Positions 1-7,513 of a stretch of 7,513 bases of DNA are shown here, piece by piece. The DNA is from a virus. Lineage: Duplodnaviria > Heunggongvirae > Uroviricota > Caudoviricetes. A program made the position numbers and the translations under genes. Below the pieces are notes generated by a model, which made no database searches, was not told where the DNA came from, and worked only from the letters and a program-made list of their open reading frames with translations. Numbering within the stretch: the stretch's first letter is position 1; every line of letters starts with the position of its first letter. The stretch lies in IMG/VR virus record IMGVR_UViG_2609460344_000015, positions 1-7,513 of that record. One strand, written 5' to 3'.

Positions 1-38
1 ATATTTCAGCTGGCGAATAATATCCGACAGTAATCACT

Positions 39-61
39 CTGCGCAATAGCGCGGCCTTTTT
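39..61 (+). terminator. Possible small intrinsic terminator upstream of the esterase gene
   Basis: Stem CTGCGC (39-44) / GCGCGG (49-54) with one G-U pair, AATA tetraloop, then CC + TTTTT (57-61). Short stem; the context upstream of position 1 is not visible. Confidence 0.25.
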
Positions 62-163
62 CGTATTGCGGGCTGTTGTCTATCTTCTGCCATTATCCTG
101 TAACTTCCGGACTTCAGCCCGCTCCTCATTTTACTCACAATATTATCCAGGCCGGGAGGATTC

Positions 164-2124
164 ATGGCATTTAAACACTATGACGTGGTCAGGGCGGCGT
201 CGCCGTCAGACCTTGCGGAGCGACTGACACAAAAACTGAAGGAGGGGTGGCAGCCATTTGGCAGTCCGGTGGCCATCACGCCTTATACCCTGATGCAGGC
301 CATTGCGGCGGAAGGTGATGTCACCACACCTGTGGTGGTGAAGCCGTCGGATGGAGAAGGCGCAGTTATCAGCACCACCAGCAACTCGGAGTATTACTTT
401 GTTGTTGCCCTGGCCGGGCAGTCAAACGGTATGGCGTATGGTGAAGGGCTTCCGCTGCCGGAGACATATGACCGTCCGGACCCGCGCATTAAACAGCTGG
501 CGCGTCGCAGCACTGTCACGCCGGGTGGTGCGTCCTGTAACTACAATGACATTATTCCTGCGGACCACTGCCTGCATGATGTTCAGGATTTGAGTAAGTT
601 TTCACACCCGAAAGCCAGCGCAGCTCAGTATGGATGCGTGGGGCAGGGATTACATATCGCGAAGAAATTGTTGCCGTTTATTCCGGCGAATGCCGGTATT
701 CTTCTGGTTCCGTGCTGCCGTGGTGGTTCTGCATTTTTGGCGGGCGATGAAGGTACCTTCAGCGAATCCACCGGCGCAAGCGAGACCTCGGCACGCTGGG
801 GTGTAGATAAGCCACTGTACAAGGACCTGCTTACCCGTACTCAGGCCGCACTGAAGGCTAACCCTAAAAATATTCTGCTTGCAGTGGTCTGGATGCAGGG
901 CGAGTTTGATTTGAAACAGGGTGCATACGCCACTCAGCCGGGGCTGTTTGATTCCATGGTGGAAAAATATCGTTCTGACCTGTCGGAATTCGGAGGTCAG
1001 TGTCTCGGGGGCTCTCCGTCATCGGTTCCCTGGATTTGTGGCGACACGACCTACTACTGGAAGCAGACTTATTCTTCGCAATACGATGCGGTGTATGGTG
1101 CATACAAGACGAAATCCGCAAAAAAAATCTTCTTTGTGCCGTTTAGACGGATGAAAACGGGCGAAATGTGGGTACCAACGAGCCGTCAGAAGATCCGGAT
1201 GTTGCGGATATTGGGTATTACGGAGCCGGTGGTCGAACGGACGCCAAAACCTGGACGACGGCCGACCGTAAAACGCATTTTGGATCATGGGCACGTCGTG
1301 GGATTATTTCCGACCGTCTGGCAACGGCGATTCTTGTGCATGCCGGGAGAACCGCTGAATTCATTACCGGAAAACAGCCTGATACGGTGAAGCCCACCGG
1401 ACCTTCCGGTGAAGGTACGGAGAGAGAGCCGGAAGCCCCGGTCAGTAACCGAACCCTGATGAGTCTGCTGGCGTCCGGCGAAGACCTGGCATCACAGGGC
1501 TGGCGCTATTATCACAAACCGGCGAGCGGAGACAATGTTAACAAAAACATTGCTGAAGCGGTGGTCAGTGATGCGGGGGCTACGGGAGGTAAGGCCCTGC
1601 AACTGAATAAACCGGAAAACCACATCTGGTTTCTGGAGCATGATGCAGCCGGACAGGGAGTGGAGTTACTGAAGAAGGGGGGACGTGTGAGCGTACGGTT
1701 TAAGTTGCCGGGTTCACTGGTGCCGAATCGGTTTGCCCTGGGCATTTACTGGCAGTTGTCGTCCCTGCCGGAGGGAGTGACGCTGGCAGAGGAAGGCAAC
1801 GACATGCTGATGTCCTTCTTCCTGCAGACGGATGCGACGAACCTGAACGCGATGTACCACAAGAAGCCGAATGCGAAGCTGGATACGTTCGGGGTCTTTG
1901 ATAACGGATGGCACACACTGGCTTTTGAGTTTGCCGGAAACAACAGCATTCAGGTGACGCCGGTACTGGATGAGAAACGGGGGACGCCGTTCACACTGGT
2001 GAAATCTCCGGCATCAGGGGCGGCGGACAAACTGCAACTGACAGGCATATCAAAGGCGGCGACATATACGCTGCTGATTGACAGTGTGAAGGTGGAAGTG
2101 AACAACGCGGATGCCGCGGCATGA
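164..2124 (+). pseudogene. nanS-p: Prophage sialate O-acetylesterase (NanS-p / SASA family) split by a single-nucleotide frame break near 1145-1150
   Basis: SD GGGAGGA 153-159, ATG 164. N-terminal ORF (164..1390) contains the GQSN catalytic motif (FVVALAGQSNGMAYGEG) typical of SASA/SGNH esterases. Protein-like translation continues in the frame of ORF 1168..2124, which has TAG at 1144-1146 just upstream, while the 164 frame becomes Arg-rich nonsense until its stop at 1388-1390. The two parts sum to about 650 codons, matching my recollection of about 645 aa for intact prophage NanS-p. Confidence 0.7.
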
Positions 2125-2133
2125 TAAAAAAAG

Positions 2134-2162
2134 CCGCCAGCGGCAGGAACGGAAGCTGGCGG
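2134..2162 (-). terminator. Hairpin oriented as a minus-strand intrinsic terminator just downstream of the esterase stop
   Basis: 8-bp GC-rich stem CCGCCAGC (2134-2141) / GCTGGCGG (2155-2162), 13-nt loop; A7 at 2126-2132 on + gives a U7 tract after the hairpin on the - strand. No U-tract follows on +. Confidence 0.35.
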
Positions 2163-2259
2163 AGGTAATCCCAATGGAGAATGTAAAGAAAAGATGCTTT
2201 CGTATATCGGTTTTTTAAATGAAAGCAGTTCTCATTGTCAACCATAACGGTAAGAAACT

Positions 2260-2442
2260 ATGACATTTATTCATCAGGTGATGCTGTACTTCTGTACGGC
2301 GGTCTGTGTGCTGTATCTTCTTTCGGGTGGGTACAGGGCAGTGCGCGATTTCTGGCGCAGGCAGATTGATAAAAGGGCCGCAGAGAAAATCAGTGCCAGT
2401 CAGTCAGCCGGAACAAAACCCGAAGAGCCTCTCATTCCGTAG
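2260..2442 (+). CDS. Hypothetical small membrane protein (60 aa)
   Basis: ATG 2260 preceded by weak SD (taAGAAAct); translation has one hydrophobic helix (IHQVMLYFCTAVCVLYLLSGGY) then a charged tail. Not recognised by me. Confidence 0.4.
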   Translation: MTFIHQVMLYFCTAVCVLYLLSGGYRAVRDFWRRQIDKRAAEKISASQSAGTKPEEPLIP

Positions 2443-2479
2443 CAACTTTCTTAACAACACCTTTCAACGAGAAAATACC

Positions 2480-2749
2480 ATGTCAGAAATAAAATCGCTG
2501 GTCACTGCTGAAGCAGTGAAGGAAGTCCTGCGCTCTGAAGAAGTCAGAAGCGCACTGAAACAGCAACTTCGGCAGAACCTTGAGGCGCGTCTTGATGCAG
2601 AAGTGGATGCCATTCTGGATGAACTGCTGGGCGCACCGACTGTTCCGGAGCCGGAAGGCATTGCGGATGACAGTGCTGTTTCAGATGGCGTCGGGTCTCA
2701 GCCTGATGGTAGCAGTGAGCCTCAGCCTGACGGCGAAATGATGATGTAA
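2480..2749 (+). CDS. Hypothetical acidic protein (89 aa)
   Basis: ATG 2480 in frame with listed ORF 2306..2749; the upstream extension overlaps ORF 2260..2442 so the internal ATG is preferred. Translation MSEIKSLVTAEAVKEVLRSEE... is a helical N-half followed by an Asp/Glu/Pro/Ser-rich tail. SD is weak (GAGAAAA). Confidence 0.5.
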   Translation: MSEIKSLVTAEAVKEVLRSEEVRSALKQQLRQNLEARLDAEVDAILDELLGAPTVPEPEGIADDSAVSDGVGSQPDGSSEPQPDGEMMM

Positions 2750-2824
2750 CCATGCGCAGGGGCTGTCGGTGTGAGCTGATGCCCCTCTTGTTGTTGTGAG
2801 CTTCCGGATTGCGGGAGACGGGGT

Positions 2825-3040
2825 ATGTACCAGATGGAAAAAATCACAACAGGTGTGTCATACACCACGTCAGCGGTGGGAACGGGCTACTGGTTCCTGC
2901 AGTTGCTGGACAGGGTTTCCCCGTCTCAGTGGGCGGCAATAGGCGTGCTGGGGAGTCTGCTGTTTGGTCTGTTGACGTACCTGACGAACCTGTATTTCAA
3001 AATCAGAGAGGACCGTCGTAAGACGGCACGGGGAGAGTAG
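2825..3040 (+). CDS. S: Class II holin, phage 21 S-like (pinholin type), dual-start motif
   Basis: 71 aa; starts MYQMEK with Met1 (2825) and Met4 (2834); SD GGGAGA 2813-2818. Two hydrophobic helices and the C-terminal FKIREDRRK...RGE tail that I recall from phage 21 S and Stx-phage holins. Confidence 0.9.
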
Positions 3041-3043
3041 GTG

Positions 3044-3124
3044 ATGAACCATGAAGAAATGAATCAGCGCTTCAGTCGTCTGGAAAATGAAATTGCTGAA
3101 CTGAATAAAAACTGTCGGCGCTGA
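3044..3124 (+). CDS. 26-codon leader ORF translationally coupled to the downstream moron gene
   Basis: Good SD GGGGAGAG 3031-3038 overlapping the holin stop, ATG 3044; encodes MNHEEMNQRFSRLENEIAELNKNCRR; its TGA (3122-3124) overlaps the ATG (3124-3126) of the next ORF. Confidence 0.3.
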   Translation: MNHEEMNQRFSRLENEIAELNKNCRR

Positions 3125-3600
3125 TGCCTTCTGAAGATGAAAAAAAACGCCGCGATGAGCAGTTTGCTGCGTTTGACGATTATTGTCGGAAAGTGATGAG
3201 CAGAAATCTCGCAGAGTGTTTCAGTATTCATAATGATAATTTCAGTGAGCTGGAATGGGAGTGTAACCGGCCATCCTTTGTTGTATCCGGTGATGCTGGG
3301 AAAATAACCATCTCAGAAAATGGGAAAGTAACACCTCCATCGCACCAGCACAGTGAGGAGCTCATTGAATTTGCCATTGATTACCTGAAGAACAATAAAA
3401 AGCAGGGGCTGATGAAGCGCGTTGGCCGTTGCATGGGATATCTTCAGGTAGCCGCTGAGATTGAAGCGCTGGCCAGTGGTGCTGATAAGGATGCAATTGT
3501 GCGGGAGGCTCTTCTTCGTGATTTTAATACTCCACCCTTTAAAAAAGTGCCGGCTTACTGGCTTCATCCGGGGCTGACTTATCTTAAAGTGCGTATTTAG
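3124..3600 (+). CDS. Hypothetical protein (158 aa), moron between holin and endolysin
   Basis: Uninterrupted ORF, no own SD (appears coupled to the leader ORF), no predicted membrane helix by eye, visibly lower GC than flanking lysis genes. Function unknown to me. Confidence 0.6.
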   Translation: MPSEDEKKRRDEQFAAFDDYCRKVMSRNLAECFSIHNDNFSELEWECNRPSFVVSGDAGKITISENGKVTPPSHQHSEELIEFAIDYLKNNKKQGLMKRVGRCMGYLQVAAEIEALASGADKDAIVREALLRDFNTPPFKKVPAYWLHPGLTYLKVRI

Positions 3601-3636
3601 TGGGCCAGGGACAGCGGCTGAATATTTAATATATCC

Positions 3637-4170
3637 ATGAACACCAAAATCAAATACGGCCTGTCGGCTGCCGTTCTGGCGCTGATTGCCGCTGGTGCGC
3701 CTGCGCCTGACATTCTCGACCAGTTTCTGGATGAAAAGGAAGGTAACCACACCACGGCATACCGTGATGGCGCGGGTATCTGGACCATCTGTCGCGGTGC
3801 CATTCTGGTGGATGGTAAACCTGTCGTCCCGGGCATGAAGTTGTCGAAGGAGAAATGCGACCAGGTTAACGCCATCGAACGTGATAAGGCGCTGGCATGG
3901 GTGGAGAAAAACATCAAAGTGCCATTGACCGAACCCCAGAAAGCGGGGATCGCGTCATTCTGTCCGTACAACATTGGTCCCGGTAAGTGTTTCCCGTCGA
4001 CGTTTTACAGACGAATTAATGCTGGTGATCGCAGGGGAGCATGTGAGGCGATTCGCTGGTGGATTAAGGACGGTGGCAGAGACTGCCGTATTCGTTCAAA
4101 CAACTGCTACGGTCAGGTATCCCGTCGTGACCAGGAGAGCGCGCTGGCGTGCTGGGGTATCGACAGATAA
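3637..4170 (+). CDS. R: SAR endolysin (phage lysozyme, GH24 muramidase, phage 21 R-like)
   Basis: 177 aa; N-terminal signal-anchor-release segment YGLSAAVLALIAAGAPAP followed by the lysozyme catalytic region EKEGNHTTAYRDGAGIWTICRG (Glu-Asp-Thr triad pattern). Pairs functionally with the pinholin upstream. Confidence 0.9.
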   Translation: MNTKIKYGLSAAVLALIAAGAPAPDILDQFLDEKEGNHTTAYRDGAGIWTICRGAILVDGKPVVPGMKLSKEKCDQVNAIERDKALAWVEKNIKVPLTEPQKAGIASFCPYNIGPGKCFPSTFYRRINAGDRRGACEAIRWWIKDGGRDCRIRSNNCYGQVSRRDQESALACWGIDR

Positions 4171-4260
4171 GCAGAATATTTTGCTGAAAAATAAGGCATG
4201 GCCACGCGGGCGGATAACATGAAATCCTGCGAACTGGCGAAACGTAAGTGAATAAAAGTA

Positions 4261-4299
4261 AAAACCCCGTTTGTTGGCAGCAAGCGGGGTTTTGTTTTT
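4261..4299 (+). terminator. Rho-independent terminator between endolysin and the small-ORF array
   Basis: Stem CCCCGTTTG (4265-4273) / CAAGCGGGG (4281-4289) with one G-U pair, 7-nt loop, flanked by AAAA (4261-4264) and followed by TTTTGTTTTT (4290-4299). Confidence 0.7.
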
Positions 4300-4364
4300 A
4301 TGGCAGTAAGCTATGGGAGGCTGCCTTGATTGATTTTAGCAAACTGATTAGGGAGTTGCGACTC

Positions 4365-4460
4365 ATGATTAGTCAATTACCAAACTGGAAATTTTTGCTG
4401 GTCTGGAGCATCCCTTTTTTATGGGTAGTATCCCAGTTAATTGTGGCAATTAAGGGGTAG
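4365..4460 (+). CDS. Small hydrophobic peptide P1 (31 aa)
   Basis: SD GGGAG 4351-4355, ATG 4365; MISQLPNWKFLLVWSIPFLWVVSQLIVAIKG is a single predicted TM helix. Lies in an AT-rich stretch. Confidence 0.3.
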   Translation: MISQLPNWKFLLVWSIPFLWVVSQLIVAIKG

Positions 4461-4462
4461 CT

Positions 4463-4594
4463 ATGTCAGACAAACTCATAACGCCGGCAAAGGTCCTGTG
4501 TGTGATTGTCGGTATTTCATTTTCACTAATGCTGGTTGCTCTTTTTCTGTCCCTCGCCTGGGTGATGTTGTCTTCGTCGGGGCTGCTGGGGTGA
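4463..4594 (+). CDS. Small hydrophobic peptide P2 (43 aa)
   Basis: SD AAGGGG 4452-4457, ATG 4463, starting 2 nt after the P1 stop; MSDKLITPAKVLCVIVGISFSLMLVALFLSLAWVMLSSSGLLG has one long TM helix. Confidence 0.4.
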   Translation: MSDKLITPAKVLCVIVGISFSLMLVALFLSLAWVMLSSSGLLG

Positions 4595-4596
4595 CA

Positions 4597-4713
4597 GTGA
4601 CTGATGACATCAGCAGAGCGCTGGCTTTTGCTATTAAGTGGGTGGCTGTTGGTATTGCTGTGTCTCCGATGCTGTATGGGCTGGCTAAACTGGTCATTGC
4701 GCTGAAATCGTGA
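4597..4713 (+). CDS. Small hydrophobic peptide P3 (about 38 aa, GTG start), paralogue of P4
   Basis: GTG 4597 (alternative GTG 4591 overlapping the P2 stop); VTDDISRALAFAIKWVAVGIAVSPMLYGLAKLVIALKS. Aligns with P4 across the N-terminus and helix. Start codon uncertain. Confidence 0.3.
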   Translation: MTDDISRALAFAIKWVAVGIAVSPMLYGLAKLVIALKS

Positions 4714-4724
4714 ACTTTAAAAAG

Positions 4725-4811
4725 ATGAGTGCTGAACTTATTCGGGCAATGGCATTTGCCATTCGTATTGTGGCCATTGCTGTTCTGGTCTGGGCAATCC
4801 GTTGGTGGTGA
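4725..4811 (+). CDS. Small hydrophobic peptide P4 (28 aa), paralogue of P3
   Basis: ATG 4725; [28 protein letters not shown]; stop TGA 4809-4811 lies 1 nt before the Rz ATG 4813. SD weak. Confidence 0.3.
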
Positions 4812-4812
4812 T

Positions 4813-5280
4813 ATGAACCGTGTTCTGTGTGTGGTGATTATTGTCCTGCTGGTAGCCTGTGGTGTGCTTAGTCTGGGGCTGAATCATTACCGCGATAACG
4901 CCATCACCTACAAAGCGCAGCGCGATAAAAAAGTCAGTGAGCTGAAACTGGCGAATGCCACTATTACTGATATGCAGCAGCGCCAGCGCGATGTTGCTGC
5001 GCTCGATGCAAAATACTCGAGGGAATTAGCCGATGCGAGAGCTGAAAATGAAACTCTGCGTGCTGATGTTGCCGCTGGTCGTAAGCGCCTGCGGGTCAAC
5101 GCCACCTGCCCCGGTACCGTGCGTGAAGCCACCGGCACCTCCAGCGTGGATAATGCAACCGGCCCCCGACTGGCAGACACCGCTGAACGGGATTATTTCA
5201 TCCTCAGAGAACGGTTGATGACAATGCAGAAGCAGCTGGAAGGGGCGCAGGAATATATCCGCACTCAGTGCCTGAAATAA
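4813..5280 (+). CDS. Rz: Rz i-spanin (inner-membrane spanin subunit)
   Basis: 155 aa; N-terminal TM helix then [16 protein letters not shown]...[16 protein letters not shown]...[24 protein letters not shown], closely matching lambda Rz as I recall it. Listed ORF 4729..5280 is an upstream GTG extension; ATG 4813 gives the lambda-like N-terminus. Confidence 0.9.
5033..5218 (+). CDS. Rz1: Rz1 o-spanin (outer-membrane lipoprotein spanin), embedded in the +1 frame of Rz
   Basis: 61 aa; lipoprotein signal with lipobox LVVSAC, Pro-rich mature part [32 protein letters not shown] matching lambda Rz1 as I recall it; entirely inside Rz. Confidence 0.85.
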
Positions 5281-5322
5281 GTTTTGTTGATGCGCCGTAT
5301 CGTCGCTGTATTCCCTCATTAA

Positions 5323-6227
<905 letters not shown>

Positions 6228-6234
6228 GGAGGTC

Positions 6235-6843
6235 ATGGTGGATAAGGGAAAAGAGATTATTGCAGTACGAAATGCAGCCTGCAACGAATACGGCGGGATA
6301 AACTGTGAGGTGCAGTTTGAAGATGCGGTCAATGAAAAAGGAGAGCAGGTATGGCTGCCGTATACCGCAACGGAAACGGATAATACAGAACACGGAAAAG
6401 CCTTGTGGTCGGGGCTGACAGCAGGAACATACGGAAGTGTGAGTGCCTTTGTTGCCACGGAAGCAATACTGGAAGCGGCAAAGGCGGCGAAAAGGGAAGA
6501 GATTAATATCTGGCGTGATGTGCAGGAGAATATGGAATACGTGATGGAATTCAACGGAAGGAACTGGGATTACGGCAAGAAGACGTTGTCCAGGATAAGC
6601 ACGACACGACTGATGGCAGAGAACAACCGTCTTCCGGAAGGGTTTGCCTGGACGGACGGGGATAATAATGTGGTGCCGGTAACGGCGGCGGAGATAATTG
6701 CGCTGGCAGATGCGACAGAGCAGGCGATGTTTGCGAAAGGTGTGGAGATTAATACACGTCAGCTTCAGATGAAAGCAGAGGTTGAGGCGCTGACAGAGCT
6801 GAAGGCGATCCGCAGTTATGTTGTCGGATGGCCTGCAAGCTGA
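6235..6843 (+). CDS. tfa: Tail fibre assembly protein (Tfa / Caudovirales tail-fibre chaperone family)
   Basis: 202 aa, immediately downstream of the tail-fibre gene; SD AGGAGG 6227-6232 overlaps the upstream stop (spacing to ATG 6235 is short, GTG 6238 is an alternative). Contains LPEGFAWTDG, resembling the LPENFTWLSPGG motif of lambda Tfa as I recall it, and a C-terminal ...VVGWPAS like the EWP ending of Tfa proteins. Confidence 0.65.
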   Translation: MVDKGKEIIAVRNAACNEYGGINCEVQFEDAVNEKGEQVWLPYTATETDNTEHGKALWSGLTAGTYGSVSAFVATEAILEAAKAAKREEINIWRDVQENMEYVMEFNGRNWDYGKKTLSRISTTRLMAENNRLPEGFAWTDGDNNVVPVTAAEIIALADATEQAMFAKGVEINTRQLQMKAEVEALTELKAIRSYVVGWPAS

Positions 6844-6845
6844 GT

Positions 6846-6873
6846 AAAAAAAACGGGACCACGGCCAGTCCCG
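6846..6873 (-). terminator. Intrinsic terminator for the minus-strand ykgJ-like gene (also caps tfa on +)
   Basis: Stem CGGGAC (6854-6859) / GTCCCG (6868-6873), 8-nt loop; A8 at 6846-6853 on + becomes a U8 tract directly after the hairpin on the - strand. On + only a weaker T-run follows (6884-6889). Confidence 0.5.
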
Positions 6874-6987
6874 GAACCATGAGTTTTTTAGGGTATTAGT
6901 TTGTTATCATAATTAGCGTGCTAAGTATGCCGTATCAGGCTGATTAGTGAAGTGATGTTGTTCGCATTTTTGCACGGCGGAGAATAT

Positions 6988-7317
6988 TCAGATTTTGGGA
7001 AATCCATATTTTTCCCGTGCGCGGTTACATGCTTCATTCGCGATGCCATTTTCGCCGGACATTGCGAATTCCCTGCATGTGGACGGACGGTTTTTGTAAA
7101 CAGAGCAATATGCGTTTTCACCGGGGGGGCCGGCCAGAGCGACACATCGGGGATTTTTCTGATTGGTGCCGCGCATACAGCGATGAAAAGGAGATATTTG
7201 CTCAGTGAGACTGACCGGGACGTTTCCGCCAGCATCATCGGCTTCAGCCCAGTAAAAAGAGACGCGGAAAAATGCACAACAGGCACCACACGTCATGCAT
7301 GGATTCGGATTGTTCAT
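6988..7317 (-). CDS. ykgJ: YkgJ-family cysteine-cluster protein (CxxCxxCC putative zinc/iron-chelating domain), chromosomal
   Basis: Minus-strand ORF; from the internal Met the product [31 protein letters not shown]... is 109 aa with the CxxCGxCC signature. The 19-codon upstream extension to ATG 7374 ([13 protein letters not shown]...) is encoded by a U-rich hairpin and looks non-coding. No clear SD at 7317, so the start is not certain. Confidence 0.7.
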
Positions 7318-7334
7318 TTTTATACTATTTGTTG

Positions 7335-7370
7335 TTTTTTCAGCGATCAGATAAAAGGGCGCTGAAAAAA
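7335..7370 (-). promoter_or_regulatory. Hairpin in the probable 5' UTR of the ykgJ-like gene
   Basis: 11-bp inverted repeat TTTTTTCAGCG (7335-7345) / CGCTGAAAAAA (7360-7370) with 14-nt loop, 18-53 nt upstream of the chosen start on the - strand. Confidence 0.3.
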
Positions 7371-7387
7371 ACATTCTCCAAAATTAG

Positions 7388-7393
7388 ATTATA
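7388..7393 (-). promoter_or_regulatory. Candidate -10 hexamer (TATAAT on - strand) for the ykgJ-like gene
   Basis: Reverse complement of 7388-7393 is a perfect TATAAT with G at -14; no good TTGACA-like -35 at 16-18 bp spacing. Sequence match only. Confidence 0.3.
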
Positions 7394-7415
7394 ACTATTT
7401 GATTTTATGGATAGA

Positions 7416-7449
7416 GGCATGCTTTTTACGAAAAAGTAAAAAGCATGCC
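7416..7449. promoter_or_regulatory. Perfect 12-bp inverted repeat (GGCATGCTTTTT / AAAAAGCATGCC) with 10-bp spacer upstream of the ykgJ-like promoter region
   Basis: Arms at 7416-7427 and 7438-7449. Sits where a -35 or activator site would be for the candidate -10; could be an operator or the terminator of the upstream minus-strand gene beyond the window end. Confidence 0.4.
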
Positions 7450-7513
7450 AAATTTGCCATTAACTCTTTGAATATTCAGCACTAATCATCTATTTCGGTT
7501 GCCTTCTTATTCA

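Follow-up and report, generated by a model that had tools for sequence, protein, structure and literature searches.

Two homologous small genes, predicted to encode membrane proteins, between the lysozyme and spanin genes of an Escherichia coli lambdoid prophage

Phage 21-type cassettes, which combine a pinholin with an endolysin of the signal-anchor-release (SAR) type, are the standard lysis system of Shiga toxin (Stx) prophages and of many other E. coli prophages. To our knowledge, the gene list of these cassettes is generally held to be complete with S, R, Rz and Rz1. What, then, are the small open reading frames (ORFs) that lie between R and Rz? We addressed this question in a 7,513-nucleotide (nt) stretch of viral DNA (the window; positions 1 to 7,513 of IMG/VR record IMGVR_UViG_2609460344_000015), which is part of an E. 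coli lambdoid prophage with a 21-type lysis cassette lying entirely on the plus strand. Its R–Rz interval spans 642 bases and contains a hairpin followed by four small hydrophobic ORFs, P1–P4, the last two of which are studied here. A sequence-only reading had described P3 and P4 as diverged tandem paralogues under selection. Sequence comparison supports their membership in one protein family and, with a probability of about 0.55, we read them as homologous, selected small membrane-protein genes that were paired by recombination, are expressed late and are accessory to lysis. A strongly constrained family of predicted membrane proteins of 28–60 amino acids (aa) fills the R–Rz junction in a large share of these prophages. 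On present evidence this is a well-supported pair of small genes and a sound but modest finding.

Homology and coding status of P3 and P4

The two genes are laid out as follows:

4597–4713, plus strand: P3, K-type (AFAIKW...LYGLAKLVIALKS), 38 aa, GTG start at 4597, stop at 4711–4713; protein VTDDISRALAFAIKWVAVGIAVSPMLYGLAKLVIALKS
4725–4811, plus strand: P4, R-type, 28 aa, with the "short-N" module MSAELIRA, ATG start at 4725, stop at 4809–4811; WP_032140280.1 in RefSeq

Are the two peptides related? The sequence-only reading had aligned them without gaps, N-termini in register and about 9 of 19 core residues identical, and the alignment does run gap-free from residue 1 with 9/19 core identities (BLASTP: 9/22 identical, 17/22 positive, single-comparison E = 2e-4 with compositional adjustment). 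The local BLOSUM62 score of 47 stands well above composition-preserving shuffles (21.5 ± 4.3; z ~6), only 1 in 20,000 of which reached that value. The other pairs among the four hydrophobic mini-ORFs scored much lower in the shuffle test (z from −1.1 to 3.7), and thus the P3/P4 similarity is more than shared transmembrane composition. At the DNA level, the best local alignment covered just 14 nt and was not significant (z 1.4, p ~0.12), and the codons differ at six of the nine identical positions, in agreement with the earlier claim of protein conservation despite nucleotide divergence.

P3 matches three PHROG profiles, phrog_1115 (1.2e-24), phrog_3246 (2.7e-19) and phrog_4493 (8.3e-17), and P4 matches the same three (phrog_4493, 3.8e-6; phrog_3246, 9.2e-5; phrog_1115, 0.053); all are classed as function unknown, and P1 and P2 match different PHROGs. 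Identical proteins are found in RefSeq as hypotheticals from the same lambdoid prophage setting (WP_042004856.1, WP_032140280.1, WP_000675931.1 and WP_062896309.1), and P2, a longer version of P3 and P4 are all hypothetical proteins in the RefSeq annotation of near-identical prophages. As far as we checked, these PHROG and RefSeq entries are catalogue records only, in which neither the link among the three PHROGs nor the N/C mosaic described below is recorded.

Two N-terminal versions, long (xKYKRxxLRLxMKxGxExxxPxxxDxx) and short (MSA[DE][FL]I), and two C-terminal versions, K-type as in P3 (AFAIKWVAVGIAVSPxLYGxAKLxxAxKS) and R-type as in P4 (AFAIRxVAxAVLxWxxRWW), join at [RK]AxAFAI[KR], a juxtamembrane motif that is invariant. 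Each of the four combinations is represented (long+K in P0006, long+R in P0115, short+K in P0102, short+R in P0164), as is a hybrid with a K-type N-terminus and an R-type C-terminus (P0137). The full-length build consists of a basic amphipathic N-helix, a short acidic linker (MKxGxExxxP..D/E), the motif, an Ala/Gly-striped helix of variable length and a C-terminal tail of 2–3 basic or aromatic residues (KS or RWW), and the window copies are minimal versions made of the acidic residue, the motif and the helix. Intermediates from Yersinia bridge the two C-terminal types, one having a K-type helix of P3 length that ends in VRWW (P0186) and others measuring 42 aa (P0180, P0184), so that P4 is in effect P3-like, with its helix shortened. 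Taken together, the shuffle test, the shared PHROGs and the bridging forms support the conclusion that P3 and P4 are two homologous members of one family.

This family is narrow, since an exhaustive profile search of 1.84 billion representatives returned only 32 clusters. It is carried by lambdoid prophages of Enterobacteriaceae: Escherichia, Salmonella and, for its more distant members, Yersinia. Pfam and NCBIfam gave no hit to P3 or P4 at E ≤ 1, holin and DUF2730 families included; PADLOC (no hits at E ≤ 1) and PDB sequence profiles returned nothing meaningful for the two proteins, and no Rfam family was found at E ≤ 1 anywhere in the window. An NCBIfam line for an MFS small subunit (E 0.16) lay below the cut-off and was dismissed as hydrophobic noise. 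A scan of species-representative genomes with the family alignment gave 56 pattern matches and 0 confirmed members, the family being too narrow or the query too short for it. Searches of isolated phages with tblastn, in which the low-complexity filter masks the helix, retrieved 14 and 9 records, all annotated "hypothetical protein".

Two in-frame starts, both preceded by a Shine-Dalgarno-like site, are found in full-length members (L017 at ~2990–3030; L093 and L142; L003 at 1657–1700). The upstream start (ATG or GTG) adds ~12 residues with 4–5 positive charges (xKYKRxxLRLx), and the internal one is the ATG in MK(N)G. Annotators pick either the longer or the shorter product (K-type, 60 or 48 aa; R-type, 37 aa).

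Are these peptides the products of genuine genes? We compared R-type alleles from two loci (L093 and L142) and found 20.5 synonymous and 6.5 nonsynonymous differences, corresponding to a synonymous divergence (dS) of 1.13, a nonsynonymous divergence (dN) of 0.059 and a ratio, omega, of 0.05. Over the 37-codon R-type core, dS was 1.79 and dN 0.06, and the 23 N-terminal residues were identical despite numerous synonymous changes. Among 17 P3 haplotypes, 6, 3 and 18 sites vary at codon positions 1, 2 and 3, and the ratio of nonsynonymous to synonymous polymorphism (pN/pS) is 0.10 in frame versus 1.3 and 7.0 in the other sense frames. Between P3 and P4 themselves, dS is ~1.37, near saturation, and dN ~0.5. 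These values argue that P3 and P4 are protein-coding and under purifying selection, which the sequence-only reading had proposed in preference to chance ORFs.

The contrary view, that P3 and P4 are chance ORFs in a non-coding spacer or that the true gene lies antisense to them, draws on the very short length of the ORFs, on the silence of Pfam and NCBIfam and on antisense frames that are open throughout. We consider it very improbable, because the sense frame is the best of all six and has an omega of 0.03–0.10, PHROG profile matches reach down to 1e-24, the family contains in-frame length variants and module swaps, and orientation and packing suit a late operon. One point does count against the sense reading: the antisense frame that shares wobble positions with P3 is open in all members and performs only somewhat worse (pN/pS 0.19 versus 0.10; identical residues 41/49 versus 44/50). 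The sense frame is favoured by its start codons, ribosome-binding sites and operon orientation. The antisense ORF itself (4476–4697, minus strand, 73 aa) lies opposite P2 and P3 and has its third-codon positions in common with P3; we judged it to be a shadow of the Ala/Val/Gly-rich coding strand.

Origin and distribution of the pair

How did two diverged relatives come to lie side by side? The term "tandem paralogues" used by the sequence-only reading holds for the homology, which PHROG matches, module swaps and intermediate forms bear out, and fails for a tandem duplication in place. Local duplication was rejected because there is no significant DNA similarity from copy to copy, and single-copy alleles elsewhere match each copy at 96–99% identity. 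In its 3' part, P4 agrees at 69/70 nt with a single-copy long-P4 allele of O157-type prophages, which shows no relation to the 75 nt upstream of that part (18/75). For the 5' part, including the 11-nt spacer, the resemblance is to the short-N module found ahead of a K-type gene in an unrelated phage (42/75; contig L266). Likewise, P3 is identical 3' of the motif at 96/100 nt to full-length P3 alleles, which occur alone; 5' of the motif only the last ~25 nt match these alleles (39/75), and what lies farther upstream belongs to the 3' end of P2. From these donor-allele identities it follows that the tandem arose by recombination joining two diverged alleles and not by local duplication. Thus, the pair is best explained as a mosaic produced by modular recombination, with the motif and the gene boundaries as probable joints.

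The contig with the short-N relative (E. coli UCZA01000058.1) carries, at 2086–2542 and again at 3052–3508, a short-N K-type gene, a diverged P2-like 44-aa ORF and a 60-aa ORF with a lipobox (LVGC). This set lies 3' of a different lysis cassette (holin_8, holin_3_7 and a GH108 endolysin). The ~966-bp segment is repeated and has ambiguous bases, possibly an assembly artefact.

Where does P3 begin? The GTG at 4597 is a plausible start, with a GGGG run 5 nt upstream and the P2 stop ending 2 nt before it. A start at GTG 4591 (40 aa), a codon that overlaps the P2 stop (GTGA), is just as possible. In RefSeq, P3 is a 51-aa version starting at 4558, where the codon in the window is CTG. Relative to the 60-aa full-length alleles, P3 is missing the N-terminal module, that is, the helix, the linker and the native ATG.

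Could P3 instead be in decay, having lost its N-terminal part through the recombination that brought in the P1–P2 block, with P4 alone functional? The loss of the conserved N-terminal helix, linker and native ATG would fit such a history, as would the RefSeq start call that falls on a CTG codon and the frameshifted P3 of the related phage phiSTEC1589 (L006). We regard it as unlikely, for the following reasons: (i) the P3 ORF is intact in ~100/105 copies; (ii) P3 differs from full-length alleles by 4 synonymous changes and 1 conservative change; (iii) ATG-started K-type forms of 38 aa occur naturally and independently elsewhere (P0102, P0099); and (iv) the first retained valine codon of P3, 5 nt past the GGGG, is GTG in 96/96 copies joined to P2 and GTA in 86/86 full-length copies. 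The GTG at the P2/P3 joint fits continued translation of P3, and is suggestive only, the 96 copies probably representing one event.

Looking for the same pair in homologous prophages, as the sequence-only reading had proposed, we found that it recurs widely. An exact search of viral contigs with the 19-nt junction between the P3 stop and the P4 start gave 97 stretches, and both ORFs are intact in ~100 of the 105 junction-bearing sequences (the window and the fetched loci), the two clear exceptions being rearranged contigs. Of 5,426 complete E. coli genomes, 587 have the 644-nt block that includes the pair at ≥80% coverage (the tandem form) and 2,062 match it in part, and the exact P4 sequence occurs in at least 998 contigs.

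Other arrangements are found at the same junction. The commonest, in O157-type prophages, is R, long P4, Rz. Others read R, long P3, P2, Rz; or R, P1, P2, Rz; or, in CP-1639, R, a P1-like 45-aa ORF, Rz; and full-length P3 is followed by P4 without P1 and P2 in three loci (L017–L019). Family members keep the same position in the cassette in all arrangements seen and lie directly upstream of Rz both in E. coli and in a Yersinia remnant. Small proteins of K-12 (YnfQ/R/U and others) were considered as relatives and are unrelated, since the rrrQ/rzpQ interval of its Qin prophage is empty.

The remnant just mentioned lies in four Yersinia enterocolitica chromosomal loci (L267–L270, 2960–3601), where a 49-aa member is followed after 1 nt by an intact 149-aa Rz. 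Its neighbours are tmcA and a hydrolase gene, both of the host, and an IS110 element, and no holin or endolysin was called in the 3 kb upstream. The 49-aa protein occurs in 1,647 index blocks of a public assembly collection.

Lysis cassette, expression and possible role

The cassette has the order S, R, hairpin, P1–P4, Rz/Rz1:

2825–3040, plus strand: holin S, class II (phage 21 S-type), 71 aa, first cassette gene; Pfam PF04971 Phage_holin_2_1, E = 1.4e-32
3124–3597, plus strand: ORF of 158 aa, no Pfam match, located between S and R
3637–4170, plus strand: lysozyme R, RrrD/RrrQ type, 177 aa; Pfam PF00959, E = 1.4e-24; annotated "lysozyme" in RefSeq relatives
4261–4303, plus strand: hairpin with U-tract, intrinsic-terminator-like, directly 3' of R; from the terminator scan and RNA folding
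4813–5280, plus strand: i-spanin Rz, 155 aa; Pfam PF03245, E = 3.6e-50
5033–5218, plus strand: o-spanin Rz1, embedded in Rz; Pfam PF06085, E = 1.7e-21

Endolysins of Stx phages have been described as predicted SAR endolysins (PMC8136144). R begins with MNTKIKY (two lysines). Ala and Gly abound in its N-terminal stretch, the hydrophobicity of which is weak (best 17-residue hydropathy 1.77), and R is therefore a predicted SAR endolysin.

When would P3 and P4 be expressed? The hairpin behind R is unusually stable (−24.2 kcal/mol, z = −5.05, 0/200 shuffles as stable) and is kept in many related prophages, bases 1–129 of the query being conserved at 88–98% in many records. A simple consensus search found no promoter-like (sigma-70-like) site on the plus strand from 3900 to 5400, and the sole promoter-like site was a weak one on the minus strand (4469–4440). 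Since no such site lies on the plus strand between the hairpin and P1, we infer that the late, Q-antiterminated transcript that also covers R and Rz is the only one in which P3 and P4 would be read. In this transcript, translation may proceed by coupling along the chain of ORFs, which are separated by 2 nt (P1/P2), 2 nt (P2/P3), 11 nt (P3/P4) and 1 nt (P4 to the Rz ATG).

A junction of the form [R/K]WW-TGA-N-ATG precedes Rz in 193/193 cases in the fetched loci (TGAtATG in the window), and the codons before this Rz allele are always [CGN/AAA] TGG TGG TGA (window 4800–4815; L267, 3138–3153; L271/L272, ~1785–1802). Within them, TGGTGGTGA resembles the consensus GGAGGTGA. Thus, the last codons of P4 (TGG TGG TGA, TGGTGGTGA) look as though they double as the predicted Shine-Dalgarno region of Rz, and translational coupling into Rz is plausible. 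A coding sequence whose end codons double as the ribosome-binding site of the next gene would be of interest in itself. The unrelated P1-like ORF of CP-1639 and L271 ends identically (IRWW-TGA-A-ATG), from which it appears that the Rz ribosome-binding site sets the RWW end, at least in part. This ORF was also considered as an R-type homologue and rejected: hhalign aligned its IRWW tail only, which we read as the shared Rz ribosome-binding region.

Do the peptides matter, or only the act of translating them? The small ORFs could form a translational relay from the hairpin to the Rz start, opening its ribosome-binding site, with irrelevant peptides. The tiny gaps between the ORFs speak for this, as do the invariant TGA-N-ATG, the conserved resemblance of TGGTGGTGA to GGAGGTGA, the common tail of the unrelated P1-like ORF and the direct overlap of R and Rz in the Qin prophage of K-12. 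However, a relay would not preserve amino acids, yet the 37-codon R-type core has changed almost exclusively at synonymous sites, the [RK]AxAFAI[KR] motif is kept with different codons in P3 and P4, and K-type members that are not next to Rz (P2 being next instead) are equally constrained. A relay with dispensable peptides is thus quite unlikely.

What kind of proteins would they be? An AlphaFold2 model of a 60-aa member shows a helix at 3–15, a loop and a continuous helix at 23–59 (pLDDT ~85–88). In sequence, the long forms have a basic N-terminus, a conserved acidic residue precedes the [RK]A motif by 3–4 positions, the helix has small residues (Ala, Gly, Ser) at i, i+4 and i+7, and only 2–3 residues follow it. 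These features suggest an N-in/C-out tail-anchored peptide suited to helix–helix packing, and P3 and P4 are probably very small single-helix proteins of the inner membrane, insertion and topology being predicted from sequence.

Comparison with known systems gives the closest functional analogy in the releasin of phage Mu. Mu gp25 (DUF2730) is a membrane-tethered protein needed for release of the SAR endolysin; it has a single helix and is not a holin, and its gene lies a few genes downstream of the SAR endolysin and next to the spanin genes; it has 99 aa with an N-out/C-in topology and a 73-aa cytoplasmic domain, and the basic N-terminus of the endolysin is the proposed target of the acidic cytoplasmic residues of gp25 (PMC9239132). 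Similarly, every member of the P3/P4 family keeps an acidic residue just before the helix, and R here starts with the basic MNTKIKY. Unlike gp25, the family members measure 28–60 aa, with a C-terminal helix and almost no soluble domain, and this cassette has its own holin where Mu has none. Membership in DUF2730 was excluded by size, topology and the lack of a Pfam match.

The holin/antiholin pairs of lambda (S107/S105) and phage 21 (S71/S68) are also small membrane proteins of lysis cassettes. Dual starts underlie the antiholin logic of lambda S and S21, and full-length family members likewise have dual starts, the longer product adding a strongly basic N-terminus that recalls this logic. In contrast to these holins, P3 and P4 have one hydrophobic helix and no charged C-terminal domain (they end in -KS or -RWW), and the window copies do not have the dual-start region. 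P3 and P4 were rejected as holins, with no holin Pfam match at E ≤ 1 and a separate cassette holin (PF04971). HokW of Sp5 is a small membrane-active peptide of an Stx prophage that aids phage release on induction (PMC8621323). Hok differs from P3 and P4 in having its own promoter and an antisense RNA and in belonging to a different sequence family; a type I toxin was rejected for P3 and P4, with no Pfam hit, no antisense RNA or Rfam element and no promoter-like site on the plus strand.

Alternatively, P3 and P4 may be moron-type genes that are expressed from the prophage and take no part in lysis, acting in superinfection exclusion, membrane stress or fitness, or in the regulation of membrane proteins of the host. 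Among small membrane proteins of bacteria, many act as regulators of larger ones, the R–Rz junction is a cargo hotspot (a 231-aa ORF sits there in PhiR5_1), the terminator-like hairpin insulates the block from upstream transcription, and a member is kept with Rz in the Yersinia chromosomal remnant, whose protein recurs in the assembly index. We hold this to be rather improbable: no sigma-70-like promoter was found on the plus strand between the hairpin and P1, in other arrangements the first start codon comes only ~30 nt after the hairpin, the ORFs are welded to Rz and have no terminator of their own, and PADLOC returned no hits for them.

Our best guess is that P3 and P4 are late-expressed accessory inner-membrane proteins that modulate lysis. 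Their placement is inside the holin–endolysin–spanin block, on the same strand and without a plus-strand promoter-like site of their own. Inserted N-in/C-out, they might contact the pinholin, the SAR domain of R or the membrane helix of Rz through small-residue helix faces or through the juxtamembrane acidic patch, and so affect the timing with which these partners fire.

Several observations weigh against this reading. Literature searches with the peptide strings and accessions returned no paper, and topic searches found no R–Rz genes described in these cassettes. The start of P3 is uncertain, and P4 is without a recognisable Shine-Dalgarno sequence. The promoter scan, a simple consensus search, cannot exclude expression in lysogens. 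A cassette of this type can work without the genes, since rrrQ abuts rzpQ without an insert in K-12 Qin and other relatives have only P1 and P2. The relative on contig L266 lies behind a non-SAR GH108 cassette and is followed by a lipoprotein gene and not by Rz, which argues against a strictly SAR-specific role. Finally, all fetched loci share one R allele group (88–100% identity), and the linkage to R and Rz may be mere descent.

A bolder form of the accessory-lysis reading is that the family is an unrecognised class of lysis regulators, tail-anchored micro-proteins that time when the SAR endolysin is set free or the i-spanin becomes active. The acidic-[RK]AxAFAI[KR] motif and the Ala/Gly helix face would do the work, and dual-start isoforms and swappable N- and C-terminal modules would let phages retune lysis timing by recombination. 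We consider this doubtful; if true, the R-type member in O157:H7-type and Stx prophages would influence the timing of Shiga toxin release. More generally, if P3 and P4 tune lysis, they would help to determine burst timing and toxin release, in a role so far unstudied, and would exemplify helix–helix regulation in compact form; otherwise, they provide a clean case of micro-protein genes evolving through module exchange. The family, catalogued yet uncharacterised, is a reasonable candidate for a new accessory lysis function.

Neighbouring ORFs and other features of the window

Two unrelated small ORFs separate the hairpin from P3:

4326–4460, plus strand: P1, small hydrophobic ORF of a different family from P3 and P4; phrog_6632, E = 6e-5
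4463–4594, plus strand: P2, 43-aa hydrophobic ORF, 2 nt past the P1 stop; phrog_4906, E = 4.5e-21; WP_001280935.1 in RefSeq

P1 encodes 44 aa from TTG 4326, with GGGAGG (4315–4320) 5 nt before it, or 31 aa from ATG 4365. P1 probably starts at TTG 4326 and not at ATG 4365. Its homologue in CP-1639 and L271 has 45 aa and, at the equivalent position, a GTG start preceded by GGAG; the length of the PHROG profile is 45 positions. The last 15 residues of P1 (PFLWVVSQLIVAIKG) are weakly similar to the end of P3 (PMLYGLAKLVIALKS). P1 was not accepted as a third family member, the similarity being limited to these residues (shuffle p ~0.004; hhalign probability 10%).

P2 likewise belongs to a different family from P3 and P4. 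Across 25 haplotypes its N-terminal 27 aa are conserved and its C-terminus varies, with a pN/pS of 0.60; the 3' third is far more variable than the first 27 codons. Some P2 alleles (L022, L024, L027 and others) change frame in the last third and end in ...RLDDVVFVGDAGVRGI, and the frame of these shifted ends is the one that runs on into P3 in the window. A database protein, P0106, is a P2–P3 fusion.

Upstream in the cassette, the holin start (window 2825–2840) reads MYQM where phage 21 S starts MKSM; the two-start layout is retained, but the lysine that distinguishes the antiholin is missing. RefSeq relatives have "YdfR family"/DUF1327 genes at the position of the 158-aa ORF.

Before the cassette lies a DUF1737/SASA carbohydrate esterase gene of the NanS-p type (164–2124), split into overlapping ORFs at 164–1390 and 1168–2124. 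In relatives it is a single gene of ~616 aa (L001, 581–2431), and on this comparison we take the split to be a frameshift or a sequencing error.

Beyond the spanin genes, a tandem repeat at 5556–5956 (within 5490–6227) consists of 8.9 copies of a 45-bp unit with a 91% match and encodes a collagen-like Gly-X-Y array. The frame that bears it is open until 6227, with a stop just upstream and no evident start, and is apparently the 3' part of a tail-fibre gene. Longer ORFs in other frames of this region, on both strands, are shadows of the repeat, and a DUF4376 ORF follows at 6235–6843, 3' of the repeat frame.

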